32,000 nucleotides of DNA from Vulcanisaeta distributa DSM 14429 (GCF_000148385.1 NC_014537.1:150001-182000); one strand, 5' to 3'; positions 3,952 to 32,000 are shown, numbered from the stretch's first letter. Translations and numbers: made by a program. The notes: generated by a model from the sequence alone, not told the origin.

Positions 3952-4980
3952 TTAGCTAGTGCTTAAATCGCCCACCAACTCTGAGTAGCTCCTCATTATC
4001 TTTTCTACCTTTGCCTTTATTGTTTCCTCGCTTTTACCCCTCTCCATCGCCTTAACTATGTACTTCGCCGCTTGCTCAGCCTTCCTAAGCGTTACCCTGC
4101 CCATGTACTCCTCAACCACCTGCCTAACCCAGCCCGGCATCCTCGCGTTGGTGATTGACTCCATGAAGCCAATCAACTCATCAACGCTCGGCTGCGGCAC
4201 CTCAATGGGCACCAGCCTATCCATCAATGGCGCCCACCAATTCGCAGACCTAACCCTTGGGTTGAATGGGTTTGCCGCCGCGACTGCCCTGAGCCAGGGC
4301 ATTTCGAGGCTTACAGCCTTACCGTGCTTCGTAATCCTAAGCCTACCACCATGATCAAGCAACTGCAGTAGTGGGCTTAGTGCGATGTTCCTAGCCTTAT
4401 CAAGCTCATCCAGGAGTAGGTAGTCGACGCACCCAGCCTCGATTATTAAGTCCTCAATACCCGCAGCCGAAGCATCGGCCATATTCACGTAAAGCGGGTT
4501 ATTCGCTACCTCAGCGATTGCATCCAAAATAAGCGTCTTACCACTACCAGGCCCACCAAGCAAAACAACGTGATTACCAGCCTCAAGATTGATTATTAAG
4601 TCATCAACAGCCTCACCAAGGCTGGGCACGAGCTTAAGGACCCTACTACTCAGGTAGCTCGTGACCTCACCAATCGCCTTAGGCTCACACTTCGTTGCCT
4701 CCGCCTCTCCCCACCCCTTCCCACCAATGAGTGAGTTTACTACGTCGATTATGATCCTCCTAGCCTCGGCGCATGGCCTGTTTATTATTGCCCATGTGTA
4801 TGACCTAGACCTCTCAATCCTGAAGCCATACCTCACGAGTAAGGTCCTAAACCTATTGTAGTTCCCGGGGCCGAGGACGTCAATCAACACCCTAACACTA
4901 ACGGTACACTCACCATTATCCTCCCGCATGTATAAGCCATCAATTAATGACTGGGTGTTGAGGGCCCCCACACGACTCAC
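3952..4980 (-). CDS. AAA+ ATPase (MoxR/RuvB/RFC-like core) with N-terminal unknown domain
   Basis: Walker A 'GGPGSGKT' and Walker B 'YLLLDELDK', followed by 'AVAAANP' (sensor-1-like) and 'MDRLVPIEVPQPSVDEL'. The GTG start at 4980 directly abuts the stop (4981-4983) of the upstream gene. Confidence 0.8.
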   Translation of the reverse strand: MSRVGALNTQSLIDGLYMREDNGECTVSVRVLIDVLGPGNYNRFRTLLVRYGFRIERSRSYTWAIINRPCAEARRIIIDVVNSLIGGKGWGEAEATKCEPKAIGEVTSYLSSRVLKLVPSLGEAVDDLIINLEAGNHVVLLGGPGSGKTLILDAIAEVANNPLYVNMADASAAGIEDLIIEAGCVDYLLLDELDKARNIALSPLLQLLDHGGRLRITKHGKAVSLEMPWLRAVAAANPFNPRVRSANWWAPLMDRLVPIEVPQPSVDELIGFMESITNARMPGWVRQVVEEYMGRVTLRKAEQAAKYIVKAMERGKSEETIKAKVEKIMRSYSELVGDLSTS

Positions 4981-5859
4981 CTACTGCATTAGGCGTTCTA
5001 GCAAGCTCACACCCTCCTGCCGGCTCGCCTTAGCCAGCTTAATCACTAGGTCTAGGTGTTTCCTAACTTCATCAACCCTATCGTTGAGTAGGTCCTTGAT
5101 TAACCCACTAACCTCGTTAATGTTGAAGCCGTACCTCAGGGCTTTATGTATAAGCCCCACCAGTACGAACCTTAGGAACTTATTAACATTGTATTTGTGG
5201 AAGACCACAGCCCTAAATGCGTAGGTTGACTCGGGGGTGTCCAGCCCAATGGCATCCGCAATCGCCATTAATTCGGTAATGTTTTTCATGCTCATGAATG
5301 TACTCATCGCCGCCTGGTGCATGGACCGCGCCAGGGTCTTGTCATATGTATCGTAGGCGCCCAGGTTGAATAGGTTGATTATTGATTCCTTAACGAGGTT
5401 CATGGCATCGCTAGCCTCCCCACTTAGTTCATTGCTCACGTACTTAGTGTACATGTCTAGGTATGTGAAGAACGCGAGTGATGTGGTTGATGCAAGCACT
5501 AGGCCTATTGAGGTTGGTAATATGGACATAATCCTACAGCCCGTCTTCGACACTGCGCAGTCATAATCACTCGACCTGCACGTTGAGCCCCTCCTAAACT
5601 TCACAAGGCCATACTCACACAGCCTCCTCAGCATTCGGTAGAGCACACGATGGCTTGTGATGCCGAGGTAATCCCTGGCAAACCCCCTGATGGCCGTGAA
5701 CCTAGCCGCACCACCGGCCAGTGTGTCTAGGGATATCCTCATGAGGAGGATGTCCTCGCAGGTCACGGTTGTCATGAGTGATGGGGCGTTGTCCAAGCCA
5801 TCCACCCTGGCAACCTCATCAACAAACCAACACCACCTAACCCTCCCCAACTGACCCAT
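4981..5859 (-). CDS. winged-helix (wHTH) DNA-binding protein, 292 aa (TTG at 5862 also possible)
   Basis: 'RFTAIRGFARDYLGITSHRVLYRMLRRLCEYGLVKFRRG' fits a helix-turn-helix plus wing pattern. It is co-directional with the AAA+ gene and abuts it. It is divergent from the 5993-10060 operon. Confidence 0.55.
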   Translation of the reverse strand: MGQLGRVRWCWFVDEVARVDGLDNAPSLMTTVTCEDILLMRISLDTLAGGAARFTAIRGFARDYLGITSHRVLYRMLRRLCEYGLVKFRRGSTCRSSDYDCAVSKTGCRIMSILPTSIGLVLASTTSLAFFTYLDMYTKYVSNELSGEASDAMNLVKESIINLFNLGAYDTYDKTLARSMHQAAMSTFMSMKNITELMAIADAIGLDTPESTYAFRAVVFHKYNVNKFLRFVLVGLIHKALRYGFNINEVSGLIKDLLNDRVDEVRKHLDLVIKLAKASRQEGVSLLERLMQ

Positions 5860-5901
5860 CAAATCACCGGCAATAACTACCTTAGAATTTACACTTAAAT
5901 T

Positions 5902-5993
5902 AGTTACTGAAACCTCAAGTTACTGAACCCGATAAACAACTCGGTAACTAACCATAGAGAAAAGCAATTTAAAAATGCGTATCTCGGTAACTA
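5902..5993. promoter_or_regulatory. divergent promoter region with repeated AGTTAC/GTAACT motifs and TATA box
   Basis: 'AGTTACTGAA' occurs at 5902-5911 and 5918-5927. The inverted-orientation 'TCGGTAACTA' occurs at 5941-5950 and 5984-5993. The TATA-like 'TTTAAAAA' at 5968-5975 lies about 22-25 nt upstream of ATG 5993/5996. Confidence 0.4.
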
Positions 5994-7186
5994 TGATGAG
6001 CACTGGGGGCTTAGGTAATAAGTGCAATAGGTGTGATAGGAGGTGTGAGTTGAATCAGTTGCAGGGTAGGGGTTGTGGCTCAGTAACGATCGGTGATGAG
6101 GTGATTGACTACGGGGACCTCTGCGTAGACATTGGGGATGTAATAGGCATACTAGAGCACGGCGACATAGACCTTGCGGAGGCCCTGAGGCAATTCATCA
6201 ACACAAAGTCCTTCAATGCAGACCTATGCGAGCTTTGCGGCGATTATAACCAAAGGATTACCTGCACCGAGAACTTAGCCATTTACTGCTCAGATGAGGA
6301 TAAGATATACTACAACATTGATAGGGTCGCTGAGTGGTTAACTAAGCTTTACATAACGAATATGGGCACACTCATGAAGCAGCTAGCCAGTGAGTTAAAG
6401 GATGTGTTGATTAAGAATAGCAACTTCAAGCTTGGGGTACCACTGGGCCTCGTCATGAGAATCGCCGCCGAAGCGACTGTGGATGTTGCAATGACGTATC
6501 TACTCAGTCACGAGAGATACCACTGGGCGCATGGGCCTGGCGAATTCCCACCAGAGGAGGAGGTCATGGCCGCAGCGTATGGAATGTACACTGCTTACAC
6601 CGAATCACTCAATCCACTGGTTAAGTTCATATCAATGATTAGCAAGTCCCTGCCAGAAGGACATGCGCACCTGAGGTTTAGAGCATTCTCACTGCCGGGA
6701 ACTACTAGGTACTTGCTTAGCACGTTACTGAAAGGCTACTTCAAACACCTAACGCTGGCAAGGCTTGCCTACGATAATGCACTCCTAAAGGACTACTCAG
6801 GCTTTACCAAGTACCTAGACCCAATACCCAGCGAGCCTAGGCTCGTAATCCTAAGCAATGGCATAATAACCGTCCCAATCATCGGTAGGAGCTACGAGAT
6901 AATCGCAAACTTCGCAATGAATGATGATCAATACGTGCAAATAATTCATGACGACCGCAGAATCCTCGATGTGGAAATGAGCATAAAGTCGGTAGAGCCA
7001 AAATTCACGGGGGAGCCAAGGATAAGGAGGGGCGAGGTTCGTGAGGAGTATAAGCACTGTGAGGTCTGCATAGACCTTAAACCAAGCCAATGGCTAATAC
7101 CCATTGAGTCAATAATCAATTATAATTACCTAAAAATAAGTCAAGTGACTCCAGAAGTCTTAAAAGCAATTGTTAATGGTGATTAA
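5993..7186 (+). CDS. HExxH metallopeptidase-like protein with N-terminal Cys clusters (ORF open from 5975)
   Basis: 'SHERYHW' (HExxH at 6509-6523) is followed by 'EEEVMAAAYGMY'. N-terminal Cys clusters are 'CNRCDRRCE...C' and 'CELCGD...C...C'. It is paralogous to the 20775-21650 product ('IYYNIDRVAEWL' vs 'IYYVVPSIANDL'). ATG 5975 overlaps the putative TATA box, so 5993/5996 is preferred. Confidence 0.6.
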   Translation: MMSTGGLGNKCNRCDRRCELNQLQGRGCGSVTIGDEVIDYGDLCVDIGDVIGILEHGDIDLAEALRQFINTKSFNADLCELCGDYNQRITCTENLAIYCSDEDKIYYNIDRVAEWLTKLYITNMGTLMKQLASELKDVLIKNSNFKLGVPLGLVMRIAAEATVDVAMTYLLSHERYHWAHGPGEFPPEEEVMAAAYGMYTAYTESLNPLVKFISMISKSLPEGHAHLRFRAFSLPGTTRYLLSTLLKGYFKHLTLARLAYDNALLKDYSGFTKYLDPIPSEPRLVILSNGIITVPIIGRSYEIIANFAMNDDQYVQIIHDDRRILDVEMSIKSVEPKFTGEPRIRRGEVREEYKHCEVCIDLKPSQWLIPIESIINYNYLKISQVTPEVLKAIVNGD

Positions 7187-8396
7187 TGTGGCTCAGTCCC
7201 TACCAGCAATGGCTAGCGTTGGCAATATTGTTAGGAATTGGAATGACTGGGTCAAGAACTTCTTCAATGCCTATATAGCGCCCCTGAATCAATGTGCCGA
7301 GGAGCTACTGAAGCAGTTCGGCAATATTAATAATGAGTTCGTGGAGTACGTAAGGCTAATCCACGACCTAACGGATAAGATACTAAGTAGGACTGGGGTA
7401 ATCGCGGATTCGGCAATTACGCCATGCAGCATTGAGAGGTTTCTCGAGTATGCCGTGAACTCATCAGCAGGTCACAACCCATTCATGTTCTTCGCCTGGA
7501 GCATTAGAACAACAACGCCAATACACTTTAGGGCATACTACGGAGACCCAAGCAATTACACTACTATACTAAGTAACCTTGGTTACGACAAAATACAGAA
7601 CGCACCACAACCAGTAAGTCTATGCCCAGGTTGCAACCCAAGCGAGTACTCACTCCATGGCTACCCAGATTGGTTAATCAATGGAAACGTCGAATACGTA
7701 CCTGGCTACTACCCAAGGCTTTCCCTGAAATTCGAGGAGAATGCTTGGAATAAATTCATCAGCAGCGCCTCGACATTAGGCGGCTTACTCGCCAGACTTA
7801 ATGAAGCGATATGGAGTATGATAAATGATGCTACCTGGCTATCCTCCCTCTACTACTATTCACAGAATAACCAGATTATTCCATTGAGATCATCATTAAT
7901 TGACTACGCCATGAAAGTAAGCAAAAGCCTAGAACCAATCAGTGCGCAATATGTTAATCATTACGTATGCCGTGGTGGTGACGTTGATAGCAAATTTGAC
8001 GTATTCTGTAGAAACGTGGTTACAAGCGTTTATGCAGACATAAATACCATATCGCGATCATTAACCACATTACTCGATGCTCTTCATAATAAATTCAACA
8101 GTGATACTGCACGTGATGAACCCACATACCATATTTACTTAGTCAACAATAACGACCGTAACTGTAAAGCTGGTCGTTTTGAATATGGGCTTTATTACGT
8201 TCCTATGCCGTGGTGCTCATACATGGATATGGTAATACCTCAGGTAATGCTCGGCAGACTAGAGCTGGTAAGTATTAACATGAATAGTCTCATTAATGAA
8301 CTTAGTAAAGCTTATGTTAGTGAGGAACGTCAACGTATTATTCAGTTTCTTAATACATACACAGGCACATACACGGTTTTGCTTAGGTGGTTATGA
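7170..8396 (+). CDS. hypothetical protein (408 aa), paralogue of 16336-17526 product
   Basis: Shared block 'HNPFMFFAWSIRTTTPIHFRAYYGD' vs 'YNPFTFFIQSLDFTPKPYLRLMYCD'. The start is ambiguous (TTG 7170, ATG 7176, GTG 7188) and overlaps or abuts the upstream stop at 7184-7186. Confidence 0.6.
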   Translation: MLMVINVAQSLPAMASVGNIVRNWNDWVKNFFNAYIAPLNQCAEELLKQFGNINNEFVEYVRLIHDLTDKILSRTGVIADSAITPCSIERFLEYAVNSSAGHNPFMFFAWSIRTTTPIHFRAYYGDPSNYTTILSNLGYDKIQNAPQPVSLCPGCNPSEYSLHGYPDWLINGNVEYVPGYYPRLSLKFEENAWNKFISSASTLGGLLARLNEAIWSMINDATWLSSLYYYSQNNQIIPLRSSLIDYAMKVSKSLEPISAQYVNHYVCRGGDVDSKFDVFCRNVVTSVYADINTISRSLTTLLDALHNKFNSDTARDEPTYHIYLVNNNDRNCKAGRFEYGLYYVPMPWCSYMDMVIPQVMLGRLELVSINMNSLINELSKAYVSEERQRIIQFLNTYTGTYTVLLRWL

Positions 8397-10060
8397 TGGG
8401 TACGACGTACCTTACTCATGAACAACAAATTGTGCAGCAACTACTTAGAAGGAAGTATTTCCTAGTTCATGGAGGTGGTGCTAGGGAGTTAAACCCAGGG
8501 GAAGTGGCCCAGCTTGGTATTCAAACACAGCAATACGCGCATGTACCTATTCAGCAGCCGCAGGTTGTGCAATCCCTCGCGCCGCAGCATGCAGCGCCGC
8601 AGTACGCCGTGCCTACACCACCACAGCGATTACCTGAGCGACCACAGCCGCTGGGCGATATATTCTACGTATCATCCATAGAACTGGCAGGCCCTATCAA
8701 TGTGCGTAAATTGCCATTAATAATACCGCAGGTAACGCCCATATCCGCACAGTCAATTAATGTTTATCGCATGACCCCGCAAATACCCACGCCACAACTC
8801 ACGTTTAGTCCTGTGGCATCAATAATCTTAAATGAGGAGGCCTTAGAAGCAATGGGGCTTAGTAAGAATGAATTCGTGTTAAGGCTCGTAAGTACGGCAT
8901 CCGTAATTGGGAGGGGGTTAACAACACTTCAGTATTTAGTTGGTAGTGGGGAATTCGTTGATTTCCTAAATGGGCGTTTAGGACCAAGTAGTAAGAAGGC
9001 CGTGATACTACTTTGGGATTTGCACGACAATATCCATTACGATTTCATCAGGGAATTACTGCTCAGGAGGATGCGCGAGCTTGGTGATGAACCTGAATTT
9101 GTTAGGTCAGTCATTGATAGCGCTGGCTCGGTGAGTAACGGCGTCAAGACAGACCTTGAAGTCTCAAGCAACGTTAATCAATTACTCATGATAAGGTGTA
9201 TGTTAGATAAGGAGCAGTTAATGAACCTTAATTGGTTTAAGGATAGGCTCAGGGAATTAATGAGTAGGAGAGGTTCAACATACGTAGTCATAATATGTGA
9301 GAGAAGCGCCACCAATGTGGTGGGGTACGTCGTTAACGCATGGAGTGAAATATGTAAGGGTGAGGGCGCGCACAGTCCTATTGAGAGACTGTGTAATTAC
9401 GTGGTTGACAAACTTCATGTACCATTTATAATACTTCAACCCCCAGCAACAGCCGAGGGTATTAAATTGGCTTACTTAATTAATGGTGTTAAACCACCAG
9501 ATAACCCATCAAACATATTTGACGTGGCCTTTGGCGATGCCTTAATGCGGTATAGCTCGAGACTCAACGAGATAAAGAGTGATTATGAACTATACGTTGA
9601 GCGCGGCGAGAATGAGTCTGCCGAGCACTTTAAACTTAAGGCGTTTATTTACCACTACCTGGTTAAGACTAGGTTTAATGGTAAGCCCGAGGATTCGATA
9701 GGTCAAATAAGGACTGAGTATGCGGTATGCAGTGGTGTTAAGGCTGACGTGGCTTATGGCGGCGAGGTTTATGAGGTTGAGACCCTATTTGGCGAGGGTG
9801 AAAATAGCGTTAAGAAGGTTCAGGAGACCGTGATGAAGTATAAAGGCTGTGGTGCCATTTCGAAGGTTCACATCGTACTTGAGCCACTAACCACCGTCAT
9901 GCATCTAAAGGAGCTTTGGGGCTTAATGGAGCACTTCAATAATTTGAGGAGGAGGGGTTTATTGCCGTTTGGGGTTAGTATAGAGACTATAAATGTGGAT
10001 AGGGAGGAACTAGTGCCTCTTAAGGACTTTATTAGGGAGTTGGGTGAAGCACTGTCTTAA
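8387..10060 (+). CDS. hypothetical protein (557 aa) with Q/P-rich N-terminal region and conserved C-terminal domain; paralogue of 17523-19388 product
   Basis: ATG 8393 overlaps the upstream stop (8394-8396) as ATGA. Shared blocks are 'NWFKDRLRELMSRRG' vs 'LNRLRDRLRELFSQG', 'ESAEHFKLKAFIYHYLV' vs 'ESMTHYLTKAFVVRHLI', and 'YEVETLFGEGENSVKKVQETV' vs 'VEVETLYGTGTVVHKLLETV'. Confidence 0.6.
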   Translation: MVMMGTTYLTHEQQIVQQLLRRKYFLVHGGGARELNPGEVAQLGIQTQQYAHVPIQQPQVVQSLAPQHAAPQYAVPTPPQRLPERPQPLGDIFYVSSIELAGPINVRKLPLIIPQVTPISAQSINVYRMTPQIPTPQLTFSPVASIILNEEALEAMGLSKNEFVLRLVSTASVIGRGLTTLQYLVGSGEFVDFLNGRLGPSSKKAVILLWDLHDNIHYDFIRELLLRRMRELGDEPEFVRSVIDSAGSVSNGVKTDLEVSSNVNQLLMIRCMLDKEQLMNLNWFKDRLRELMSRRGSTYVVIICERSATNVVGYVVNAWSEICKGEGAHSPIERLCNYVVDKLHVPFIILQPPATAEGIKLAYLINGVKPPDNPSNIFDVAFGDALMRYSSRLNEIKSDYELYVERGENESAEHFKLKAFIYHYLVKTRFNGKPEDSIGQIRTEYAVCSGVKADVAYGGEVYEVETLFGEGENSVKKVQETVMKYKGCGAISKVHIVLEPLTTVMHLKELWGLMEHFNNLRRRGLLPFGVSIETINVDREELVPLKDFIRELGEALS

Positions 10061-10175
10061 TTTTGATGCTTGTTACTCTCTACCTAAGATTGCGAATCAG
10101 ATTGTTTTGTTTGTGCTTCGTAGATTATTACCGCCGTTACCACGTAGTTCTCGCGACTCCCCGCAACACTCACCT

Positions 10176-10304
10176 TCACATTAATAACTCTGCCACCCCA
10201 TTCTCCACCTCCCTTATTGCCTCATTAATCCGGGACTCCAACTCCCTCTCCACGTACCTACCACTCGCGGTTTCCAAGGCCACTACCTTAACCCTAGTTG
10301 GCAT
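10176..10304 (-). CDS. possible small ORF (42 aa) directly downstream of herA-like gene
   Basis: My hand translation gives 'MPTRVKVVALETASGRYVERELESRINEAIREVENGVAELLM'. It is on the same strand as HerA, about 31 nt downstream, and below the ORF-track length cutoff. Its composition is protein-like, but there is no motif. Confidence 0.2.
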   Translation of the reverse strand: MPTRVKVVALETASGRYVERELESRINEAIREVENGVAELLM

Positions 10305-10335
10305 TAACTAACACTGGCTAGGCCCTTGAAATACA

Positions 10336-12369
10336 TTACTTATGGCTCCTATGCCTTACCTGTGGTGGTGCCTTTATCATTACTGCGTGTGTTCTTAGGG
10401 CGTAGCTCCTCACCACGGCGACCCCGTCCTGGGCGTACATTATTTCGCCAGCATACTCCCTAAGGCCAACTCTCTCCAACACCTCAACCTCACTCCTAAG
10501 GGCGACCTTCGTATTCGTAAGCTGGAGGATTAGGTCATTCAAGTCGCCAGGGGTGTGGGTTGCAAAGATGACGCCAATCCTCCTAACCCTACCAAGCCTC
10601 GTTAACTTATTAATCATTGTCTCCACGGTGTCCTTATTGAAGTCCTCATCACCACGACCAACGGTCTGTGGGAAGTAGTTGTGGGCTTCATCAATCATTA
10701 TGAAGGTTGGTCTAGGCTGCCTGCCACCCCTCAACTCATTATCCCTCTCCTCAAACACCCTTGATAGGAACCTATAAACAATTATTGACGCGGCGCCGGG
10801 GTTCTCCCTGAAGAGCCTTAGGTCTAGGATTACGAGGCCTCTCAGGACATCCGCGTAGTTGCTCGGCTCGTTGAATACCACGGCGTACCTACCATCCCTA
10901 CTGGTGAACCTAACATCCATTATCCCCAAGCCACCAATCATTGAGAGCCCCCTGAAAATGTTATCCCTCTGGCTCGGCGCCAACTTCATGCATGCGGCGG
11001 CCAACTCAATACATGCATCATTACTCAGCAACTCGTCAATACCCGTAGAGCCCTCCTGAGCTCCCACGGCCTTGGTGGCGAGCCTACCCTGCCTCCTATC
11101 CTCTACCCTACACTTCTCCCTACCCCTCTCGCCAACCCTCTCCTCACAGTTAACACCAGCCCTTATGTAGTCCATAGCCCTATCAATGACCTTTGGGAAT
11201 AGTAGGGAAACCCTCTGACTAAACACTGGGAATACCCTGGGCAAGTCCCTATAGATGCTGCTGAAGCTTAGGGCCCACGGAATAAGCCTAAGCCTGAAGC
11301 TTCGCCCATCAACGGTGACCACCGCCTCAACCCCATCCAGGACAGCCTCATTACCCTGAACCCTAACCGACGCCGTGTAGTTTCTGGGGTCGACCTCAAT
11401 CTTAGAGCCTCCGTAGGTCTGCTCCAGCAGTGCCCTGAGTAGTCCATAGCCAATGGCCTGGGCGTACTTCCCCGGATCCTCGACGTCCGTGAGGGTTGCG
11501 TCACTGCCCTCCACCTCACCCACGTAGTAGTCCCCGTAGTCCTCAATGATGTCCCTATTAACCCTCAGGTAATCCCTCGTGATTGGCGCCACAATCGTTA
11601 GTGAATCCACGGGCTTGAAGATTAAATCATCAACAACCCTATCCGGGGGCAGCGCCATTAGTGGGTAGTCGCCCTGCAGGTCTAGGGCTACCACAGTTGA
11701 CTCGGGTATTGAACTCAGTATTGAGAGGGCTAGATTCTTTAGGAGGACTGTCTTACCACTACCCGTGGTGCCCACCACGAGCATGTGCTCGTAGAGTACG
11801 TGCTCCGGCAGGAGGACATCAACACCCCTAACCACCCTACCGCCGGAGTAGAGCCAGCCAATGAGGACCCCACTACTCGGTAATTGCAGCATCCTCTTTA
11901 TGAACGTGGGTGTTGGCCTGAAGACGATACTCAGTGGGTCTATTGGTGTGTGGACTGGTGATGGGTCGCAAGCCTCGAACCCATCCATTGGGCACTCGGT
12001 GAGTGGTTCGAGCATTACGGTGGCCGGCGTGGCAATGCCTGTGTAGTCCTCGGGAACCTCAAGCACGGGTGTTGTCCTCGTGAAGCCAATGACGTGGCTC
12101 CTCCTAACCTCGGTAACCCTACCCAGGACGAGAGTCCTGTGTATTATGGTTGCAATACCGAGGAAGTCCCCAACCCTAATCCCACTATTTACGTAGTTGT
12201 TGAATGGAACGTCGATGATTATCCTATGACCCTCAACACCCACGGACACGTAGTCCCCCATCGTGACCCTACCAATAACCGCATCACCAACACCCTTACT
12301 GTGTATGAAGTCCTCAATCTCCCTAGCCCTAGCCATAAGGTCAGGCGACTGCACTACCAACCACCTCAC
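10336..12369 (-). CDS. herA: HerA-like (DUF87, FtsK/HerA-class) ATPase, 677 aa
   Basis: Walker A 'VVGTTGSGKTVLL' and Walker B 'TFIMIDEAHNYFPQ'. The N-terminal barrel-like region is 'IGRVTMGDYVSV...VGDFLGI...LGRVTEVRR'. It lies immediately downstream of a NurA-like gene. An alternative ATG at 12336 would remove the 29-nt overlap. Confidence 0.85.
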   Translation of the reverse strand: MRWLVVQSPDLMARAREIEDFIHSKGVGDAVIGRVTMGDYVSVGVEGHRIIIDVPFNNYVNSGIRVGDFLGIATIIHRTLVLGRVTEVRRSHVIGFTRTTPVLEVPEDYTGIATPATVMLEPLTECPMDGFEACDPSPVHTPIDPLSIVFRPTPTFIKRMLQLPSSGVLIGWLYSGGRVVRGVDVLLPEHVLYEHMLVVGTTGSGKTVLLKNLALSILSSIPESTVVALDLQGDYPLMALPPDRVVDDLIFKPVDSLTIVAPITRDYLRVNRDIIEDYGDYYVGEVEGSDATLTDVEDPGKYAQAIGYGLLRALLEQTYGGSKIEVDPRNYTASVRVQGNEAVLDGVEAVVTVDGRSFRLRLIPWALSFSSIYRDLPRVFPVFSQRVSLLFPKVIDRAMDYIRAGVNCEERVGERGREKCRVEDRRQGRLATKAVGAQEGSTGIDELLSNDACIELAAACMKLAPSQRDNIFRGLSMIGGLGIMDVRFTSRDGRYAVVFNEPSNYADVLRGLVILDLRLFRENPGAASIIVYRFLSRVFEERDNELRGGRQPRPTFIMIDEAHNYFPQTVGRGDEDFNKDTVETMINKLTRLGRVRRIGVIFATHTPGDLNDLILQLTNTKVALRSEVEVLERVGLREYAGEIMYAQDGVAVVRSYALRTHAVMIKAPPQVRHRSHK

Positions 12370-12730
12370 TTAGCAATTGCCTAACCTCAACCTCCGTATC
12401 GTACGTGAAGGAGACCTGGCTACGCCTTGCCAATTCATAGAACGCCAGGTATAGGCCCCTGGTCAGAGACTTAGCGTACTTATCAACAACACCTATTACG
12501 TAGGGCAGACCATCAACACCAATATTCCTGGCGAGCCACTTAACGAGGCCTTCAACGACATCCCTCATCCCATCATACGTACTCCGCAGAACCTCAACCC
12601 TGAATACCCTTGACCCCAACCCACTGTACACGTACCAAAACACCCTCTCGGGGAAGGTGTACGTGGTTATCTTACCACTTTCGCGATAGACATGCCTGAA
12701 GGGCCCAATGATTATTGGGTCGAGGACCCC
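12341..12730 (-). CDS. nurA: NurA-like nuclease, C-terminal part (frame open from 12730; ORF track lists 12341-12643)
   Basis: 'GLPYVIGVVDKYAKSL' resembles the C-terminal NurA motif. The reading frame stays open upstream to 12730, where it meets the other frame at a G5 run. Confidence 0.55.
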   Translation of the reverse strand, partial: GVLDPIIIGPFRHVYRESGKITTYTFPERVFWYVYSGLGSRVFRVEVLRSTYDGMRDVVEGLVKWLARNIGVDGLPYVIGVVDKYAKSLTRGLYLAFYELARRSQVSFTYDTEVEVRQLLSEVVGSAVA

Positions 12731-13506: not shown

Positions 13507-13599
13507 TAATCAGCAACACATATACCCACTTATATAACTTGTCTATTACCACACAGCAAAAGCGAAACAAGGATTTAGAGTGAGAGGCATGAGAAGGCG

Positions 13600-13812: not shown

Positions 13813-13936
13813 GCATTGCATGTGTACTTCTTGGGTGATGACTTGGTTTATAACCCACTGAATTAATTAGGTATGGCGTGGGTTGGTGCCTTAGGACTTA
13901 GGAGTGCTGTTGAGGGGTTTGGGCTTGGTGGTTGTT

Positions 13937-16196: not shown

Positions 16197-16207
16197 AGAG
16201 CCTCACC

Positions 16208-16329: not shown

Positions 16330-16335
16330 AAGTGG

Positions 16336-20666: not shown

Positions 20667-20687
20667 AACATGTTTGCGCAAGAAATG

Positions 20688-20757: not shown

Positions 20758-20774
20758 GGGGTAGAGCCAGCACT

Positions 20775-25006: not shown

Positions 25007-26274
25007 GTATTTCATTAAGTATAAAAGAGTATACTAATAAATTAAATAGTAATTATCAGCAAATTAAAAACTCCCTAAAGGAGTTAAACAATATTTTAGA
25101 ATCTCTAATGGAATTAATTTCATTGGCTAAAAAATTAAGGTTGAAAGTACCGCCTTTTCCAAGTATCGAAAAAATTGAATTGGATCAAAATAAATTAAGC
25201 AATGTTATTAATGGCTTAAGAAATTACTCCAATAATGTAATTTTGGTCATTATGAATCAATTATTGCCTGGCCTAAGTAATGATATTAATGATTGCGAAA
25301 TAATAACAGATATGTTAAATGGTACTAAAAACATACTTAAGGACTTTATTGATAGCGTGCAGGATTTATGGAAATATCGTAATGAACTTAAGTATTTACG
25401 CCAGTGCATCAAAGGGTATTGTGATCTTGTCACTAGGGTAATACATGATGGAGAACTGAAGGAGGAGGTAAAGGTATTGTCTGAGATATTCAGCATTAAG
25501 GATAAGCTTAATGGAATAAGCTTGCCTATTACGAAAGGGTTAAATCAATGCATAGATAATGTTATAAATAATGTAATAAAGGATTGCAATCTTCCTTCAT
25601 TTAACGATATCGAGAAGAGTCTCAAGAATATGCTTGACTTGCTCACGTATTTTGATAATATGATAAGTGTAGTTAATGGATTACGTACTTTGCAGTATAA
25701 TGAGTATTCACAACAAAAGGGAGATTATTGCCCTGAAATAGCGAAGATCTTTGATGATTTTATGAGCACCATTAAGGGACTTAATCTCAATGAGCTAACA
25801 TTAAAATGCGGTACACCTGAGGAATTAATAGGTCTCGTTAAAGAGATTGAGGATAAAAGGGATCAATATGTCAAGAATATACGAGATAGTCAAGCTCAGG
25901 TGATGAATTACTTAAACAGATTTAAAAAGGTATTAAGCAATAGTGAATTACGAGAAGAGTTTGAGAATACGCATAATTCGTTGGAAAAAATAACTAATCA
26001 ACTTATTACGGAGATATCCGGCAAAAGTGTGGAAGGAGAGAATATTAGACAGATATTGGATGAACTGCAGAATAAGTTAAACAGTATTTTACAGTTCATA
26101 TGTGAGAAGTTGATACCCGGGTTAGGATTGAAAGATGAGGAGTTTAAAGTAATAGTTGAATTAATCAGGAAAGGTGGAATCGCAGATTTTAAAGATTTAA
26201 GTGATGTAGGTCGTGACATAATCATCGAGCTTTGTGAAAAGGGTATATTGAGGTGCCAAGTAAGTTTGGGGTGA
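25003..26274 (+). CDS. coiled-coil protein (423 aa) with possible C-terminal wHTH
   Basis: ATG 25003 overlaps the upstream stop (ATGA). The sequence is N/K/E/L/I-rich and helical throughout. The C-terminus 'EEFKVIVELIRKGGIADFKDLSDVGRDIIIELCEKGILRCQV' is wHTH-like (tentative). Confidence 0.65.
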   Translation: MSISLSIKEYTNKLNSNYQQIKNSLKELNNILESLMELISLAKKLRLKVPPFPSIEKIELDQNKLSNVINGLRNYSNNVILVIMNQLLPGLSNDINDCEIITDMLNGTKNILKDFIDSVQDLWKYRNELKYLRQCIKGYCDLVTRVIHDGELKEEVKVLSEIFSIKDKLNGISLPITKGLNQCIDNVINNVIKDCNLPSFNDIEKSLKNMLDLLTYFDNMISVVNGLRTLQYNEYSQQKGDYCPEIAKIFDDFMSTIKGLNLNELTLKCGTPEELIGLVKEIEDKRDQYVKNIRDSQAQVMNYLNRFKKVLSNSELREEFENTHNSLEKITNQLITEISGKSVEGENIRQILDELQNKLNSILQFICEKLIPGLGLKDEEFKVIVELIRKGGIADFKDLSDVGRDIIIELCEKGILRCQVSLG

Positions 26275-26278
26275 GCCT

Positions 26279-29206
26279 GTGATTTGTTATAAGTTCGATA
26301 AGCCATTAATACCTTCTGTTGAGGAATTATTCCGTGAATGCGGTAAGGACGTTAATTTCATGAATAACTACATTATTAATAGTGTGCTTTCGTACATTGA
26401 AAGGAAAGAGCAGGATTTAGTGCTTGGAATGCAATATAATGATTGGGTAATCATCGACAGTAGCGCTAAGGACGAGATTAAGGAGCAAATAATTAATTAC
26501 ATTACTAAGTTTGCGATAGCTTGTAACGGGACTAATCGTAATAAGGACTATCTAAAGAAGGTGAGAGAGGAAGTTGATAGTAATAGGGTTGTTGAAAAGG
26601 CCCTATGCTACTTATATGCATTTGGCATATACGGTGACTGCATTAGTAGGTATTTGTTGATTAAACCCCCTGATGGTGATGAAGTACCTGACTATGAAAT
26701 CCCTGGTTTAGATAATGAAGTTGTTGAGAGGGCGAAGGACGTATTTAATAAATGCGTTGAGAAACTTAGTAAGTGGCGTGAGTATTGGGTGAGGAGTAGG
26801 TTCATAGAGATTGTTCGTGACTTATACCTACTCAAGCAGAGGTTCCCTGATAAGTCGGTGTTTGAGTCATACATGCTTATTGATAGGGTATTTGCATATG
26901 CATACCCACGTAATTTACCGCTTGGTGTTTACACGGTAAGTGACGTATGTGGTGATGGCACGTCAACGATTAACCTAAAGAAGTTAACTTACAGCTTCTT
27001 CAAGTCATACCATGATTACCTAATAGGTGCGGTAAATGAAAATATAGATGAGGAATTCGAAGAATTTTGGGAAATATTCTGTTATTTTCTACGTAAGGCA
27101 TTTAGTGATAGAAGATTCTATAGGTTTCAGATAAGGGGCGTTGAAACCGCTATTAAGAAATTATTGGGTATCTTCAATACATCCGAAAGCCGAGGGGCTG
27201 GTAAGATTGATTATTTAATAATTGCCGCACCAACAGGTAGCGGTAAGACGGAGGTTATGGTATTAACAGTATTAATTGCTGCGCTGGCGAGAAAGATAAT
27301 CCTAATAAGGCATGGACTTGATGATGAGAAAAACGTACCGATCGCATTAATGGTATATCCAAGGAGGTCCCTAGCCAATGATCAAGTATCAAGATTAATA
27401 GAGTACCTGAGTATAATAAATGAGAGGTTAAAGAACAAACTGCTGCTAACGATCAATTATACGGATATAAGAGACAAGAGAGAGTATGAAGATGCCATTA
27501 ATTCTGTTAAAGTCGGCGCAAAGCCAGTCCCCTTGCAGCTTAAGTATGGGGTTCTAGCATCCTTAATTAAAGATGGTGAGAATTATTATGTCGAACTTAG
27601 ATTTTTGACATGCCCCAGGAGGTTCACGTCAGGGTCTGGCAGTATTTATCCGAGATTTAGGGTTGTGAGGAGGGGTGATAGGTACGAGGTTGATGATTCG
27701 GTTGTGTACTGTGGTGATAATGCATTGAGTTTCATAGCCCTAACTAAGGACAGGGTTAGGGAGAGATTGGGCGATATTCACATAACAATATTCGAAACAC
27801 TTAGGCATAACTTATTTTCGAGAAGTTTCGAGAATTTATTCGGCATCTGTAGAAAGGCTGGGGATAACAAGGTGGTGTTTGATTACCCACTGATAATAGT
27901 TCTTGATGAGATACACACATACACTGACATACCTGGTGTAAGGTACACTTACATGCTTAGGAGGGTTCTAAATAGAATTAGGTATTATAGCGAGAATTGT
28001 AATGGGGATGGGTTACCAGGTAATCTCGTAATAGGCATGAGCGCAACAATACCTAATGCGGGTGAATTCCTTAGTAAATTATTCTTTTCCGAGGATATTG
28101 AAAAGAATATTAATGACTACCTAATTACTGTTGATGATGAGGAAACAATACCTCTCGGTAATGAATACTTCATAATAACGGTACCGACGCGTGGGGCTCC
28201 CGTGGATGCGTTAACGGTATCTATACAGACGATAATGAATACATTTTACAACATACCATCCATACCAATAGATAGTGGATATGTAAAGAAGGGCATAGTC
28301 TTCCTGGAAGAATTCAATGTATTGAGGAGGATGAAAAGGGAACTTTGGAATAGGGAGCAGGGAGCAATATATAGAGTTGTTGAAATTAACAATGAAGAGG
28401 TTGCTTTTGGTCTTCAAGACTTGAGAAATCCAAGAAATAGGTATTTTTACGAGGTAACACTGGAGGATTACGGTGATGATGCGAAAGTCGTCGATAATAT
28501 AAGAAGGGGTAAAATAAGCAGAGTTATTAGCGCTAGGTCGTGGCTTGATGGGGAGTTATGGTGGGGTTACATGCTAGATACTATAATCAATTACTATCCG
28601 AAGAATAACTTAAGTGATTACGTAACCACTAGATTTAACAGGGTTGTTGAGTATTCAAGTAGAAAGCGAGGGGATTTAAGGAGGGCCGATATAGTGGTCT
28701 CAACGAGTAGTTTAGAGGTGGGTGTTGATTATTCAGATGTTGTTTTAATATATCAACATGGTGCTCCCCCCAATATATCATCGCTCATACAGAGGGCGGG
28801 CAGGGGTGGTAGAAGGCTTTTTGAGAATCCGTTAATGAGGATTATAGTGGGTATTCAATTGTCGCCGGATCTACCGCATCAATCCTGGCTTTTCGAAATA
28901 TTTACCAGGGTCAAGGACTTAAGAAAGGCGATTGATTATGACAAGCTATTCCTGCCGAAAGCGAGTGAGGAAATAATGAAACAAGTGCTCGCTGAATTAG
29001 CCCTTGAATACTATGTATTGAATAACGGAAAGTTAACAAATAATTGGGAATGCAGATTAACTGGTTGGCTTAAGAAAAATAAAGAAAATATAATTAATTA
29101 CTCACAGTGGGTTTTCGCTAATGTTGAAAAAAGTAGGTTAAATAGCTTCATTGATGAGATAATAAATTACCTTGATAAAAATTGCAGAGATCAAAGTGGA
29201 AGATAG
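26279..29206 (+). CDS. SF2 DEAD/DEAH-box-type helicase (DrmA/Lhr/Ski2-like core) with about 300-aa unknown N-terminal domain, 975 aa
   Basis: Motif I is 'AAPTGSGKTE' (27224-27250), Ia 'VYPRRSLANDQ', II 'VLDEIHTY' (DEIH at 27905-27916) and III 'MSATIPN'. Motif V is 'VVSTSSLEVGVDYSDV' and VI 'QRAGRGGRR' (28790-28816). The GTG start lies 4 nt after the upstream stop. Confidence 0.9.
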   Translation: MICYKFDKPLIPSVEELFRECGKDVNFMNNYIINSVLSYIERKEQDLVLGMQYNDWVIIDSSAKDEIKEQIINYITKFAIACNGTNRNKDYLKKVREEVDSNRVVEKALCYLYAFGIYGDCISRYLLIKPPDGDEVPDYEIPGLDNEVVERAKDVFNKCVEKLSKWREYWVRSRFIEIVRDLYLLKQRFPDKSVFESYMLIDRVFAYAYPRNLPLGVYTVSDVCGDGTSTINLKKLTYSFFKSYHDYLIGAVNENIDEEFEEFWEIFCYFLRKAFSDRRFYRFQIRGVETAIKKLLGIFNTSESRGAGKIDYLIIAAPTGSGKTEVMVLTVLIAALARKIILIRHGLDDEKNVPIALMVYPRRSLANDQVSRLIEYLSIINERLKNKLLLTINYTDIRDKREYEDAINSVKVGAKPVPLQLKYGVLASLIKDGENYYVELRFLTCPRRFTSGSGSIYPRFRVVRRGDRYEVDDSVVYCGDNALSFIALTKDRVRERLGDIHITIFETLRHNLFSRSFENLFGICRKAGDNKVVFDYPLIIVLDEIHTYTDIPGVRYTYMLRRVLNRIRYYSENCNGDGLPGNLVIGMSATIPNAGEFLSKLFFSEDIEKNINDYLITVDDEETIPLGNEYFIITVPTRGAPVDALTVSIQTIMNTFYNIPSIPIDSGYVKKGIVFLEEFNVLRRMKRELWNREQGAIYRVVEINNEEVAFGLQDLRNPRNRYFYEVTLEDYGDDAKVVDNIRRGKISRVISARSWLDGELWWGYMLDTIINYYPKNNLSDYVTTRFNRVVEYSSRKRGDLRRADIVVSTSSLEVGVDYSDVVLIYQHGAPPNISSLIQRAGRGGRRLFENPLMRIIVGIQLSPDLPHQSWLFEIFTRVKDLRKAIDYDKLFLPKASEEIMKQVLAELALEYYVLNNGKLTNNWECRLTGWLKKNKENIINYSQWVFANVEKSRLNSFIDEIINYLDKNCRDQSGR

Positions 29207-29220
29207 ATGGTGATGAATCC

Positions 29221-31965
29221 ATGAGCACTCTTCAGAAGATAATTGAATCGTCTAAATTATTAAGAAATTACATACCTGATAGATTATTCGCCGAGTCAAA
29301 TTTGCCCCAGGTTAAAGTAGTGCTTGATGGCAAAGTCATTGCAGTAGAAGATGCATCATTGGTAGTCTCATCCTCTGGGTACATACCAGGAAAGCCCACG
29401 TATAGGGCATTACCAACAACAGGCACTTTCATACCCCTAGATAATAGCCGTTTTGACGAAAATATTAGGCCTATTATTACTCGAATTTCATATAATGATA
29501 GGAAATTGTATGAACCATCACCTGGTTATCCGAGTCGCTATAGTATTGATGAAATAGAGATTCCCGATGAATACAAGTATTTACTGTATTTACTTAAGGA
29601 GGTACTTAAAACTGATTATTTACCAATTGAATTTTATGCTCTTAGTAAGATTAACCCATTAAGATTTAGATGCCCAGCCAGTAAAAAGAAAAGAATATCT
29701 CTGGATAATACTCATTGGTTATTCTTTTCAAGAGCAAGAACCAATGTTGAGGTTACTAACAACATTAGTTTTTCACACTCATTTTATGCATACTTAGATA
29801 GAAGCAATTCATTTCCTAGGTTCTCGATTTATAACCCGCAGGGATTAATAAAGCCTATTAAGCAATATAATATTTGTGGAATACTTGATGCAGAGATTTA
29901 TACTGTTAAAAATGCATTTTACGGTATTTATGCTGTCGATGTATATGCGGTTTTAAAGGGCAAGTACGTAGTTGGCGATTCTAAAGGTGGGTGGTGTCGT
30001 TACACAATTAAGAGCTCCGATATAAAGACGCCTAGAGATAATACCAGCTCTACTTCAATGTATTGTATAAGCACTAAAAATGGCTGTAGATATAGTAACT
30101 ATTTCGTTAAGATTTTTGTAGACGGTGATCATAACAATTGGAATCCTGTAATACTTGGATACGAGATTAAAAACACGAGAATGCTCACGCTAGACATTAA
30201 GGATTTAATAAGAAAAATAGCCTCATCAATAGTCAATATCGGTGAAGTAGAGCAAGGACAGGACTTAAAGCTTGATTATGAATATAAAACCCTCAGCACA
30301 AATACTGCAGTAGTTAATCTACTAAGGCATTACCTATCTCATGACTTGGTAATAACGTATTACTTAACAAGGCTTGGCTTCACAAAGATCGATAAATACG
30401 TTAATCTTTCAATACTAATAAATGATTTATTCCTCGGTAATAAACTAACCGTGAAGTTGGAAAAGGACGATGTTAAGGATCTTGCTAGTGATATTATTAA
30501 TGATTTCATTAAATCATTTGATAAGGAAATAAGGCAGTCCTGGATATCATTATTACGATATGTATTATCCACGGTCAAAGGTGAGAGGTTAGAAACATAC
30601 CGTATATTTCGTGAATGTAAGAATAATAAAAATACTCAAAGATACTGTATTCCTCACGAGGAAGCGGAGAATATTTGGAATAACATAGAAAAGCGAATAG
30701 AAGGTATCTTAAAGAACTATAGTGAAATACCGAGTTACTTTGGGGTTAGGACTACTTATTGGTACGTTGGCGCTATTATTGATATCATAAAGCATACATT
30801 AAGTCATCATTTAATAAGAACTATTAGCACAAGATATAGTGTTAACCCAAGTAAACTTATTGAGTATTATTACGAAATGAGAGGAGACGCTAAGGTTTCC
30901 ATCATGGAAAGGGACTCTGGGGGTATTGGTGTATTAAATGTGGCCTTTGAGTCATGGGAAAAATCTGATAAGGAATTGAGGGAGAGACAAGTCGCTATTG
31001 AGGACCTCATACTATCCTTAGGTAAGTGCCTTGTCGGTACTCCTGAAGACTTACTGCACTTCGCGTTGCTGAATGATGATATTCGTGAAAGGTTATGTAG
31101 CGGTAAAGATAATGATGTAAGAGAGGGTATAAGGGAGATTATTAGGAGATTGAACATAATAGTTACCCCAGATGAGTTTGAGGAGACTATTAAGTTATGG
31201 AAATCAATATACGAGGAGGCTGATAGACTTACACGAATATTACGCAATGGGAATAATTACTTAGGTAATGAACCATGTAAATTATTAAGGGCTGTTCATG
31301 AGTTAAGACATGAACTGGAGAAGAAAATGAGGAGGTTTCCGGACATGGACGAATTGATGGCTTATATGCTCGAGAATATTGATGAATACTCCATACTTAA
31401 TGATTTGCTAACTAAGATGCTAGAGAGGGGGCTTAGGACCTCTGGCAGGTTTAGGGAATTTCTTCATGAGTTGTATGGAACGAATGATTATGTTAAGAGG
31501 TTCATAGGGGGTGTTAATTTTATCCTGAGAAGCAGAATACAGGACATCGATCATTTAAAGGAACTGGTGAGAAACAGTAATGATATCGTGTCAAAGTACG
31601 GCACTAAGGCGCTTGAGAAAATAACTGAATGTGTAGGTAAGCGAAGGGATGGTGATGATACGTGTAAAGCAGTTATACATGCATTGAAGCTTTTGGGTAG
31701 GGCACTCCGTGCGGTGTTAATGAGGATCTCGCTACTTAGTTGTAATGGTGCATGCGGTATGTGCTATGTGAATACTAAGTCATGCAGTAGGTTTGGCGCA
31801 CCCTTCATTCAGGCCAGGACACTTGATAGGAGGGTCCTTAAGGTACTTGCCTCCGAACTCGTTAGGCACATGAGCGATATCGTTAGGGATTACTACGGCG
31901 TTAATAAGGATGTTGATGTTATTGTGGAGCTTGGCGGTGAGCCCCGTACATTGAGGTGTGAATAA
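29221..31965 (+). CDS. DUF1998-like (DrmB/MrfA-C-terminal-like) protein with C-terminal Cys cluster, about 914 aa (ORF open from TTG 29182)
   Basis: 'HTLSHHLIRTIS' (from 30793) and 'ERDSGGIGVLN' fit the DUF1998 core as I recall it. The terminal 'CNGACGMCYVNTKSCSRFG...ARTLDRRVL' (Cys codons at 31741, 31753, 31762 and 31783) has the same layout as the DUF1998 Zn-cluster. ATG 29221 lies 15 nt after the helicase stop. Confidence 0.8.
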   Translation: MSTLQKIIESSKLLRNYIPDRLFAESNLPQVKVVLDGKVIAVEDASLVVSSSGYIPGKPTYRALPTTGTFIPLDNSRFDENIRPIITRISYNDRKLYEPSPGYPSRYSIDEIEIPDEYKYLLYLLKEVLKTDYLPIEFYALSKINPLRFRCPASKKKRISLDNTHWLFFSRARTNVEVTNNISFSHSFYAYLDRSNSFPRFSIYNPQGLIKPIKQYNICGILDAEIYTVKNAFYGIYAVDVYAVLKGKYVVGDSKGGWCRYTIKSSDIKTPRDNTSSTSMYCISTKNGCRYSNYFVKIFVDGDHNNWNPVILGYEIKNTRMLTLDIKDLIRKIASSIVNIGEVEQGQDLKLDYEYKTLSTNTAVVNLLRHYLSHDLVITYYLTRLGFTKIDKYVNLSILINDLFLGNKLTVKLEKDDVKDLASDIINDFIKSFDKEIRQSWISLLRYVLSTVKGERLETYRIFRECKNNKNTQRYCIPHEEAENIWNNIEKRIEGILKNYSEIPSYFGVRTTYWYVGAIIDIIKHTLSHHLIRTISTRYSVNPSKLIEYYYEMRGDAKVSIMERDSGGIGVLNVAFESWEKSDKELRERQVAIEDLILSLGKCLVGTPEDLLHFALLNDDIRERLCSGKDNDVREGIREIIRRLNIIVTPDEFEETIKLWKSIYEEADRLTRILRNGNNYLGNEPCKLLRAVHELRHELEKKMRRFPDMDELMAYMLENIDEYSILNDLLTKMLERGLRTSGRFREFLHELYGTNDYVKRFIGGVNFILRSRIQDIDHLKELVRNSNDIVSKYGTKALEKITECVGKRRDGDDTCKAVIHALKLLGRALRAVLMRISLLSCNGACGMCYVNTKSCSRFGAPFIQARTLDRRVLKVLASELVRHMSDIVRDYYGVNKDVDVIVELGGEPRTLRCE

Positions 31966-32000
31966 TGCTATGGATATGTAAGGACTCTAGTAGAAGCCTT
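31965..32000 (+). CDS. 5' end of a further operon gene (partial, truncated by window)
   Basis: ATG at 31965-31967 overlaps the TAA stop (31963-31965) as TAATG, and the frame stays open to the window end (MLWICKDSSRSL...). Only 12 codons are visible. Confidence 0.25.
   Translation, partial: MLWICKDSSRSL

Follow-up and report, generated by a model that had tools for sequence, protein, structure and literature searches.

Repressor and metallopeptidase heads have a precedent on defence operons, and CapH/CapP pairs sit on CBASS, DISARM and other payloads (bioRxiv 10.1101/2022.04.27.489752). The Dpd system (dpdA-K) is a bacterial 7-deazaguanine DNA restriction-modification (RM) system (PMC10164549). 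Described here is a stretch of 32,000 nucleotides (nt) of Vulcanisaeta distributa DSM 14429 (GCF_000148385.1 NC_014537.1:150001-182000), referred to as the window, which carries three cassettes, A, B and C. In each, a gene for a winged helix-turn-helix (wHTH) protein, or a probable one, is divergent from an operon. Cassettes A and B carry a two-gene unit of families F4 and F5, and cassette C carries a Dpd-like cluster. In A and C the first gene of the operon encodes a protein with the HExxH motif of zincins.

The layout resembles that of CapH/CapP, ImmR/ImmA and DdrO/IrrE, in which the divergent promoter of an operon for defence or of a mobile element is accompanied by genes for a DNA-binding repressor and a small HExxH zincin, and in which the pair is found on different payloads. 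However, the putative repressor is here an AbiEi/MarR-type wHTH protein and not of the Xre/cI HTH type, the zincins form two orphan families that do not match M78/DUF955, the hosts are archaea, and cleavage is proposed. Since membership in the CapH/CapP type fails on sequence and on gene placement, that the locus works like these systems is claimed with moderate confidence only.

The window is best explained as a mosaic defence island, in which diverse payloads stand behind interchangeable heads made of a wHTH or a wHTH plus a zincin, and for which a cleavage switch is proposed; this explanation is judged probable, if not by much. The three payloads would be two anciently diverged and translationally coupled F4-F5 operons and a Dpd-like RM cluster, each divergent from an AbiEi/MarR-like wHTH gene, with cassette-specific repeated words that overlap TATA-like boxes. 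The wHTH protein would repress its own gene and the payload operon. On a signal of stress or infection, the zincin (A3 or C2) would cleave the wHTH repressor and turn the operon on, by analogy with ImmR/ImmA, DdrO/IrrE and CapH/CapP. With the zincin gene itself part of the operon under repression, such a switch would feed back positively. F5 would be the likely effector and F4 a sensor or specificity partner. The heads would be portable, as one zincin type stands before the Dpd-like cluster in the window, before F4-F5 in related archaea and before an ankyrin gene in other genomes.

The open reading frame (ORF) listing of the window places every ORF of a first-pass annotation, and with them the three cassettes, where that annotation had put them. 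The order is A1-A2 (minus strand) and A3-A4-A5 (plus); a HerA gene and a split NurA gene (minus); an orphan ORF, X3; B1 (minus) and B2-B3 (plus); C1 (minus) and C2 to C6 (plus). The first-pass names P408 and P396 correspond to A4 and B2 (family F4), and P557 and P621 to A5 and B3 (family F5). The A5 sequence agrees fully (100% identity) with a V. distributa DSM 14429 protein. The genes and control regions of the cassettes are as follows, with lengths in amino acids (aa).

3952-4980, minus strand: A1, P-loop ATPase of the AAA_5 (MoxR/McrB) type (Pfam AAA_5 33.9 bits, cut-off 22), abutting A2 in the same orientation
4981-5862, minus strand: A2, regulator-like, probable wHTH at about residues 49-96, divergent from A3
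5863-5993: A control region, with (T)AGTTAC / GTAACTA as repeated words flanked by TATA-like A/T boxes
5975-7186, plus strand: A3, zincin-like with a Cys cluster and HExxH...E, first gene of operon A
7170-8396, plus strand: A4, F4 family, A-type
8387-10060, plus strand: A5, F5 family, A-type
15357-16196, minus strand: B1, wHTH with an AbiEi/MarR-like N-terminus (Pfam HTH_45 27.9 bits, cut-off 25.5; AbiEi_4 26.4 bits, cut-off 25)
16197-16335: B control region, imperfect palindrome with 51-nt arms, GTTCTAA/TTAGAAC words abutting TATA-like boxes
16336-17526, plus strand: B2, F4 family, B-type
17523-19388, plus strand: B3, F5 family, B-type
19617-20681, minus strand: C1, wHTH related to B1 (PADLOC AbiEi 21.6 bits, E=3.4e-5)
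20682-20774: C control region, inverted repeat GCGCGAAC(27 nt)GTTCGCGC with 8-nt arms, 100% complementary, beside a TAAAAATA box
20775-21650, plus strand: C2, zincin-like with HExxH...DE, first gene of operon C
21647-25006, plus strand: C3, 1119-aa P-loop ATPase with a long helical/coiled-coil tail
25003-26274, plus strand: C4, 423-aa coiled-coil protein with weak matches only, among them NCBIfam DpdI at E=0.014
26279-29206, plus strand: C5, DpdJ-like superfamily 2 (SF2) helicase that matches the N-terminal part of DpdJ
29182-31965, plus strand: C6, 927 aa, probably the DUF1998/MZB half of a split DpdJ/DrmB

Neighbouring genes inside each operon overlap by 4-25 nt or are spaced by 4 nt, and the operon genes are therefore probably co-translated.

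The best evidence for module exchange comes from other genomes, outside the window. Comparison loci, designated by L numbers, consist of 50 metagenomic loci retrieved with an F5 profile together with contigs from an exact look-up, after which the hidden Markov models were iterated, for a total of about 60. A profile scan of genome contigs returned a single distant haloarchaeal locus. In six Caldivirga-like contigs (L012, L014, L015, L017, L065, L066) a zincin of the C2 type, which in the window heads the Dpd-like cluster, heads a B-type F4-F5 operon. In L012, L014 and L017 there is a 4-nt overlap between the zincin gene and the operon start, in L065 and L066 it abuts F4-F5 (0-5 nt), and in L015 a 273-aa and a 79-aa gene lie between. 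In two of the six, L014 and L015, it faces a B1 orthologue. The order pooled from the fullest of L012, L014, L015, L017 and L019, with orthology across L012-L019 assigned by identity, begins with a B1-type wHTH (minus) facing a C2-type zincin (plus), B-type F4-F5 and a 77-aa gene. It continues with A-type F4-F5, a 79-aa gene (minus), A1 (plus), A2 (minus), a 366-aa HExxH gene (plus) and HerA (minus). The C2-type zincin is thus normally the head of B-type F4-F5, and the B operon of the window has lost it.

The C2-type zincin is also found on another payload. In L062 and L063 it lies 5′ of an ankyrin-repeat gene beside a type I RM operon; in L062 (8001-9789) it overlaps the 310-aa ankyrin-repeat gene and is divergent from an operon of HsdM, HsdS and HsdR-like genes. 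Ankyrin repeats are unusual in archaea. In L064 the C2-type zincin is a pseudogene, and L003, the closest relative of cassette A, has no zincin altogether.

A 5′-truncated F5 gene in L046 (8527-10651) is directly abutted by pieces of an ATPase gene that resembles C3, with 35% identity to C3 residues 26-80 and 171-275. This is another junction of Dpd-cassette-type and F4-F5-type genes.

The first-pass annotation had proposed that modules are exchanged in a defence-island-like region and that the P408/P557 pair, as an alternative payload, is controlled in the same kind of way as the helicase system, and the C2-type zincins and B1-type wHTH genes that head F4-F5 elsewhere lend this support. It might be argued that the three-cassette pattern is a coincidence of unrelated HExxH motifs without any module exchange: divergent HTH regulators are common, most F4-F5 loci have none, the A3 and C2 families are unrelated by hhalign, and a third HExxH in the window is probably due to chance. 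However, B1, C1 and weakly A2 are of one wHTH type, HExxH...E is invariant in both zincin families, and C2 and B1 orthologues head B-type F4-F5 operons in other genomes. Coincidence is thus largely refuted by the cross-locus data and is considered very improbable.

By sequence comparison, B1 and C1 are clearly related (BLASTP E=9e-6; hhalign E=1.4e-6, probability 90%), and the motif G..G..L..L.K..LIER.G.G.Y, from which their relationship had been proposed, reads exactly in both. A2 appears weakly related to both: it has no Pfam match, and its family is linked to the B1/C1 wHTH by hhalign only (E=5e-5, probability 68%). The cassette A regulator had been described as a wHTH with an AAA+ part; the wHTH is thus retained in weaker form, and the AAA+ protein is the separate abutting gene A1. 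Orthologues of A1 adjoin every A-type F4-F5 pair in L003 and L013-L019, and orthologues of A2 face an HExxH gene in L014, L015, L017 and L019. In the window the gene that A2 faces is A3; in these loci it belongs to a 366-aa family with a weak link to that of A3 (E=6e-4).

The AbiEi antitoxin/autorepressor offers a comparison for B1 and C1. The B1 N-terminus scores above the Pfam AbiEi_4 cut-off and C1 matches PADLOC AbiEi models, and both genes are divergent, with inverted or direct repeats in the promoter region. Unlike in AbiE, an AbiEii nucleotidyltransferase toxin gene is absent, and the C-terminal domains of B1 and C1 are unassigned.

Each control region has words of its own. Three of the five copies of TAGTTAC in the window are inside a 93-nt span of the A control region, which holds direct and inverted repeats, and ATTAGTTAC and GATAACTAA of this region recur in the equivalent regions of L015, L017 and L003. 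Four of the seven copies of GTTCTAA are inside the 139-nt B control region, the palindrome of which (arms 16208-16258 and 16279-16329) spans nearly the whole B1-B2 intergenic region; putative TATA-like boxes, by sequence reading, are at 16226-16233 and 16305-16311. The ends of the B palindrome form a near-perfect 15-nt inverted repeat, CCATCAAGTTCTAA / TTAGAACTTGATGG. As read from the sequence, the words in all three control regions abut A/T-rich, TATA-like boxes about 22-35 nt 5′ of start codons, and these regions may be promoters under the control of the adjacent wHTH proteins.

The A3 motif is HERYH (residues 179-183), and H179, E180, H183 and E196 are invariant in a 15-member alignment. 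The family is small, with 18 representatives among 1.84 billion sequences. The public gene call for A3 begins at residue 26 of the ORF; as the Cys cluster at residues 17-24 is kept in homologues, translation probably begins at the ATG near 5993. The C2 motif is HEVCH (residues 110-114), with H110, E111, H114, H115, D134 and E135 invariant in 19 sequences, and the family has 26 homologues. Both families keep HExxH and a downstream Glu, as in M78 peptidases. About 0.18 HExxH motifs are expected by chance in the 9.9 thousand residues encoded by the window and three are present, two of which are in the first gene facing a regulator.

The third HExxH (HELRH) is at residue 706 of C6, in a long helical region without conserved context.

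The first-pass annotation had A and C share a wHTH/HExxH head. The architecture is common to both; homology of the HExxH proteins was not detected. A3 and C2 have no BLASTP support, and hhalign supports homology neither with shallow nor with deep profiles; the deep ones (15 against 19 sequences) give E=0.1, with an alignment that does not cover the motifs. Since the two families are without detectable profile homology, the head that A and C share is one of architecture only. At the sequence level the shared head instead links B with C, through the related wHTH proteins and the C2-type zincin, and not A with C.

The F4-F5 unit was found to be present twice. In an all-against-all comparison of the window proteins, A5 and B3 align with BLASTP E=4e-5 (25% identity over 279 aa), and they have invariant motifs in common within a 29-member F5 alignment. 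A4 and B2 are not detected by BLASTP (E=0.18). However, a profile grown from B2, with A4 and its close L003 orthologue excluded, scores A4 at 125 bits (E=4e-37) over nearly the full length, and the reverse test gives 152 bits (E=3e-45). From these profile scores and the A5-B3 match, both pairs are read as real but ancient paralogues. The paralogies had been proposed in the first-pass annotation; that of P557 and P621 stands by BLASTP and shared family motifs, and that of P408 and P396 at the profile level only. The all-against-all alignment by itself supports A5 with B3 and B1 with C1, and neither A4 with B2 nor A3 with C2.

F4 lies directly 5′ of F5 in 44 of the 49 cases in which the order is readable. 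The overlaps in the window are 17 nt for A3/A4, 10 nt for A4/A5 and 4 nt for B2/B3. The arrangement varies among loci between single pairs, two tandem F4-F5 pairs (5 loci) and two tandem F4 genes followed by one F5 (12 loci: L024-L030, L032, L049, L053, L055 and L056). A4 is 59% identical to its L003 orthologue and B3 is 39-42% identical to the first F5 of L012, L014 and L017. B2 has more than 140 homologues, none of which shows a Pfam domain.

Related proteins of 77 and 79 aa follow each F5 in the Caldivirga-like L012, L014, L016, L017 and L019 (e.g., L014 5829-6062 and 9163-9402); the window encodes no homologue of either, and neither gives a family match. In L011 (Natrialba sp. SSL1, 8118-10528), L035 and L048, F4 is replaced and a distant F5-like gene follows an unrelated acidic protein of 211-248 aa. 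This arrangement is a haloarchaeal or other variant of the F4-F5 pair.

Neither F4 nor F5 has a match in Pfam, NCBIfam or PADLOC. The AlphaFold2 (AF2) model of F4 (B2) is of high confidence (pLDDT 91, pTM 0.90), and Foldseek searches of PDB and BFVD with it gave no match at E<0.1. F4 is thus an orphan-fold partner of F5, and probably serves as the sensor or specificity subunit. The AF2 model of F5 (A5) has three parts: a disordered, Pro/Gln-rich N-terminal section of about 150 residues, an AAA+-like middle and a confident C-terminal domain. In L009 (7552-9315), L033, L039, L047, L040, L031 and L052 the N-terminal section of about 200 residues has four hP[FIL]hxL motifs with an exact 33-residue period (e.g., positions 52, 85, 118 and 151), with 63 matches in total against 7.1 +/- 2.4 in shuffled sequences. 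The repeats are degenerate in A5 and B3. The middle domain gives Foldseek matches to p97, ClpX and ORC (E 4e-4 to 1e-2, TM of about 0.2 for the whole A5 model), and the Walker A motif [AG]xxxxGK[ST] is found in none of the 29 F5 members, which suggests an AAA+-like scaffold that has lost Walker A.

The C-terminal domain has the invariant pattern ES..H...K, TE, (P)D and EVE. Invariant residues in the 29 members are E410, S411, H414, K418, E444, D454, E463, V464 and E465, and most members show a PD...EVYEVET motif. The elements predicted with pLDDT >85 are helix 411-428, strands 440-447, 450-456 and 459-463, helix 475-482 and strand 492-497 (alpha-beta-beta-beta-alpha-beta). In BamHI-type PD-(D/E)xK restriction endonucleases, a Glu replaces the Lys. 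The F5 C-terminus has the topology given above; its first helix holds an invariant Glu, strand 2 the (P)D and strand 3 the ExE, and from motifs and predicted topology it is read as nuclease-like, of the BamHI 'ExE' kind of PD-(D/E)xK. Unlike those enzymes, F5 carries this domain together with a disordered repeat tail and an AAA+-like domain that lacks Walker A, comes with an F4 partner, and has no sequence or Pfam match to them. McrBC, an AAA_5 GTPase with a PD-(D/E)xK nuclease, offers a second comparison, in that the A-type system always pairs the AAA_5 ATPase A1 with the nuclease-like F5; however, B-type loci and most other F4-F5 loci lack A1, and there is no match to a McrB or McrC model.

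The name CoiA, given to A5 by NCBI, was not supported: none of the 29 F5 members has any Pfam match at E<=1, and neither A5 nor B3 has an NCBIfam match.

Between cassettes A and B are the following genes.

10336-12369, minus strand: HerA-type ATPase (PADLOC HerA 203 bits; Pfam DUF87, HerA_C, FtsK_SpoIIIE), convergent with operon A
12341-13506, minus strand: NurA nuclease, split into ORFs 12712-13506 and 12341-12643 in different frames
13904-15310, plus strand: X3, 468-aa orphan ORF between NurA and B1, divergent from NurA

The 264-aa part of NurA matches Pfam NurA (30.6 bits) and the 100-aa part matches the end of the profile (positions 198-253 of 254); the split could represent a frameshifted pseudogene or a sequencing error. 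X3 has no match in Pfam, NCBIfam or PADLOC and no homologue among more than 60 related loci.

HerA adjoins F4-F5 in six loci, i.e., the window, L009, L010, L036, L015 and L017, either alone or with NurA. F4-F5 might thus serve DNA repair, recombination or the maintenance of mobile elements together with HerA-NurA and have no part in immunity, its location in a variable region being incidental. That F5 joins an AAA+-like scaffold to a nuclease-like domain, and that the family is absent from defence databases, would agree with this. However, other properties argue against it. The family is patchy in distribution (a few Thermoproteota genera and rare haloarchaeal variants), its copy number varies and its paralogues have diverged fast. 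The HerA of the window has the defence-associated HerA model of PADLOC as its best match. RM and toxin-antitoxin (TA) genes adjoin F4-F5 in every contig whose neighbours had Pfam annotation; the neighbours include a type IIG-like methyltransferase (MTase), MazE/PIN, MT-A70 with BglII, ParE, HsdM, NmeDI_C, EVE, and a set of NurA, HerA and a DUF1156-type MTase. Searches of IMG/VR viral contigs gave no relatives. A non-immune role is therefore judged unlikely, and from genomic context we infer a role in defence.

An origin of the region from viruses or proviruses was considered and rejected, as the F5, A3 and C2 profiles find nothing in IMG/VR and searches of the window for tRNA genes and Rfam families gave no match.

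A number of observations weigh against the defence and switch interpretation. Pfam searches (CoiA included) and PDB sequence searches with profiles of F5 and of its C-terminus found nothing, and Foldseek with the whole F5 model gave AAA+ matches only and no nuclease fold. Among the 15 A3-family and 19 C2-family members there is no Peptidase_M78/DUF955 match at E<=1, and no Pfam or PDB entry matches either family in profile searches. Divergent wHTH genes, which the first-pass annotation had expected in homologues elsewhere, are present in L014 and L015, as described above; most F4-F5 loci are without one, and outside the Vulcanisaeta/Caldivirga-like clade none has it, so that the arrangement is clade-specific and not a general F4-F5 trait. 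The zincin genes share the strand of the payload, the next gene of which they overlap by 4-17 nt, whereas CapP and ImmA are co-transcribed with the repressor, opposite the regulated operon. The C2-type zincin has no wHTH partner in L062, and the 411-aa gene that it faces in L017 and L066 is unrelated.

Several of these points favour the main alternative, in which the zincins are components of the payload, as an effector or maturation protease or as a two-gene unit with the next gene, and the wHTH is an ordinary autoregulated repressor without a proteolytic switch. The strand and overlap of the zincin genes, the missing M78 signature and the zincin-ankyrin pair of L062/L063 without a wHTH are in agreement with it, and so is the variety of partners opposite the C2-type zincin, which include a B1-type wHTH, C1, the 411-aa protein and HsdM. 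Against it, the zincin is always the first gene, beside the control region, whatever the payload. Cassette B of the window and the A-type L003 lack a zincin yet keep the wHTH, which speaks against the cleavage switch and also shows that the zincin is dispensable for the F4-F5 body. As the same place opposite related wHTH genes is taken by two zincin families that are unrelated to each other, a regulatory slot fits better than a payload role, and the payload role, though possible, is regarded as doubtful.

Seen by eye, this 411-aa gene of L017 and L066 resembles a wHTH gene, a likeness that hhalign does not support.

The cassette C operon compares with Dpd in several components. C5 matches Pfam DEAD (51 bits) and Helicase_C (32 bits), and its best match is DpdJ, with 117.6 bits in NCBIfam (E=3.9e-34; the equivalog cut-off is 800) and E=3e-40 in PADLOC. 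For C6 the two matches are both sub-threshold, Pfam MZB at E=0.049 and positions 768-817 of PADLOC DpdJ at E=0.0027. Of the helicase and DUF1998 proteins described for this cassette in the first-pass annotation, the SF2 helicase is thus upheld in C5 and the DUF1998 protein is a sub-threshold assignment in C6. Apart from weak AAA/STAND matches at about residues 58-98, C3 matches only the coiled-coil tail of ZorA; no Dpd model matches it.

Beyond the window the operon can be followed in L001, a Logan contig that is identical to the last part of the window; next come a PLD gene, a queuosine-precursor (preQ0) transporter gene and a gene for a 615-aa DpdA-DpdC fusion. The PLD protein (PLDc_2 present) has DpdK as its best-matching family, at 33.1 bits against a cut-off of 100. 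The fusion gene (L001 9780-11627, 1.8 kb past the window) matches NCBIfam DpdA with 275.8 bits (cut-off 200) and PADLOC DpdA with E=6.7e-76. Its C-terminal half matches Pfam DUF6884 (30.5 bits, cut-off 30) and PADLOC DpdC (E=1.9e-9), a match at the domain level only. DpdC converts preQ0-DNA to ADG-DNA. DpdB, the ATPase that DpdA requires, and DpdD-H were not identified in cassette C and L001, the sequence of which ends at dpdA.

With a DpdA above cut-off, a DpdC-like DUF6884 domain, a DpdJ-like helicase, a DpdK-like PLD protein and a preQ0 transporter, cassette C and its downstream genes are, as judged from gene content, an archaeal Dpd-like 7-deazaguanine RM cluster with a split DpdJ. Unlike in Dpd, DpdA and DpdC are fused, DpdJ is split into C5 and C6, the ATPase C3 and the coiled-coil protein C4 are unassigned, the host is an archaeon and a wHTH plus zincin head is attached. 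The order of helicase, DUF1998-like and PLD genes (C5, C6 and the downstream gene) is also reminiscent of DISARM, which consists of the DrmA helicase, DrmB (DUF1998), DrmC (PLD) and a methyltransferase. However, DrmA models score far below DpdJ on C5 (45 against 136 bits), the modification module here is DpdA/DpdC, and no DISARM methyltransferase is found in the C cluster. The GC content over cassette C (21000-31000) is 0.31-0.40, against 0.50-0.55 at 10-15 kb, and because of this low GC a recent acquisition of cassette C is suggested.

The possibility raised in the first-pass annotation that these families correspond to the multi-copy paREP type was not borne out, as A2, A3, A4, A5, B2, B3 and C2 have no Pfam or NCBIfam match at E<=0.05-0.1, and only two F4-F5 copies were recovered from V. 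distributa, both of which are in the window. Upstream of the cassettes, the ORF at 1549-1944 (plus strand) has a ribbon-helix-helix domain (CopG/VapB-antitoxin-like), which hints at a further TA element at the edge of the island. The ORFs at 10063-10311 and 19385-19609 are of low complexity, have no homologues and look like non-genes.

Taken furthest, F4-F5 would be an undescribed archaeal anti-virus system in which an orphan-fold sensor (F4) controls a BamHI-like PD...ExE nuclease (F5) whose AAA+ scaffold is dead. Its control in Vulcanisaeta and Caldivirga would fall to a portable wHTH/zincin switch that is an independent counterpart of CapH/CapP and that also drives a chromosomal Dpd. This proposal is put forward tentatively.

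Little of archaeal immunity has been charted outside CRISPR and classical RM. F4-F5 is a compact and testable candidate system, with at least 140 F4 members in hot-spring Thermoproteota that carry no Pfam, NCBIfam or PADLOC annotation, and the locus puts a Dpd-like system for 7-deazaguanine DNA modification on a crenarchaeal chromosome. It also suggests that repressor and protease heads are swapped among payloads in archaea, as is the case for bacterial CapH/CapP, with other protein families. If true, this would represent a convergent regulatory logic.

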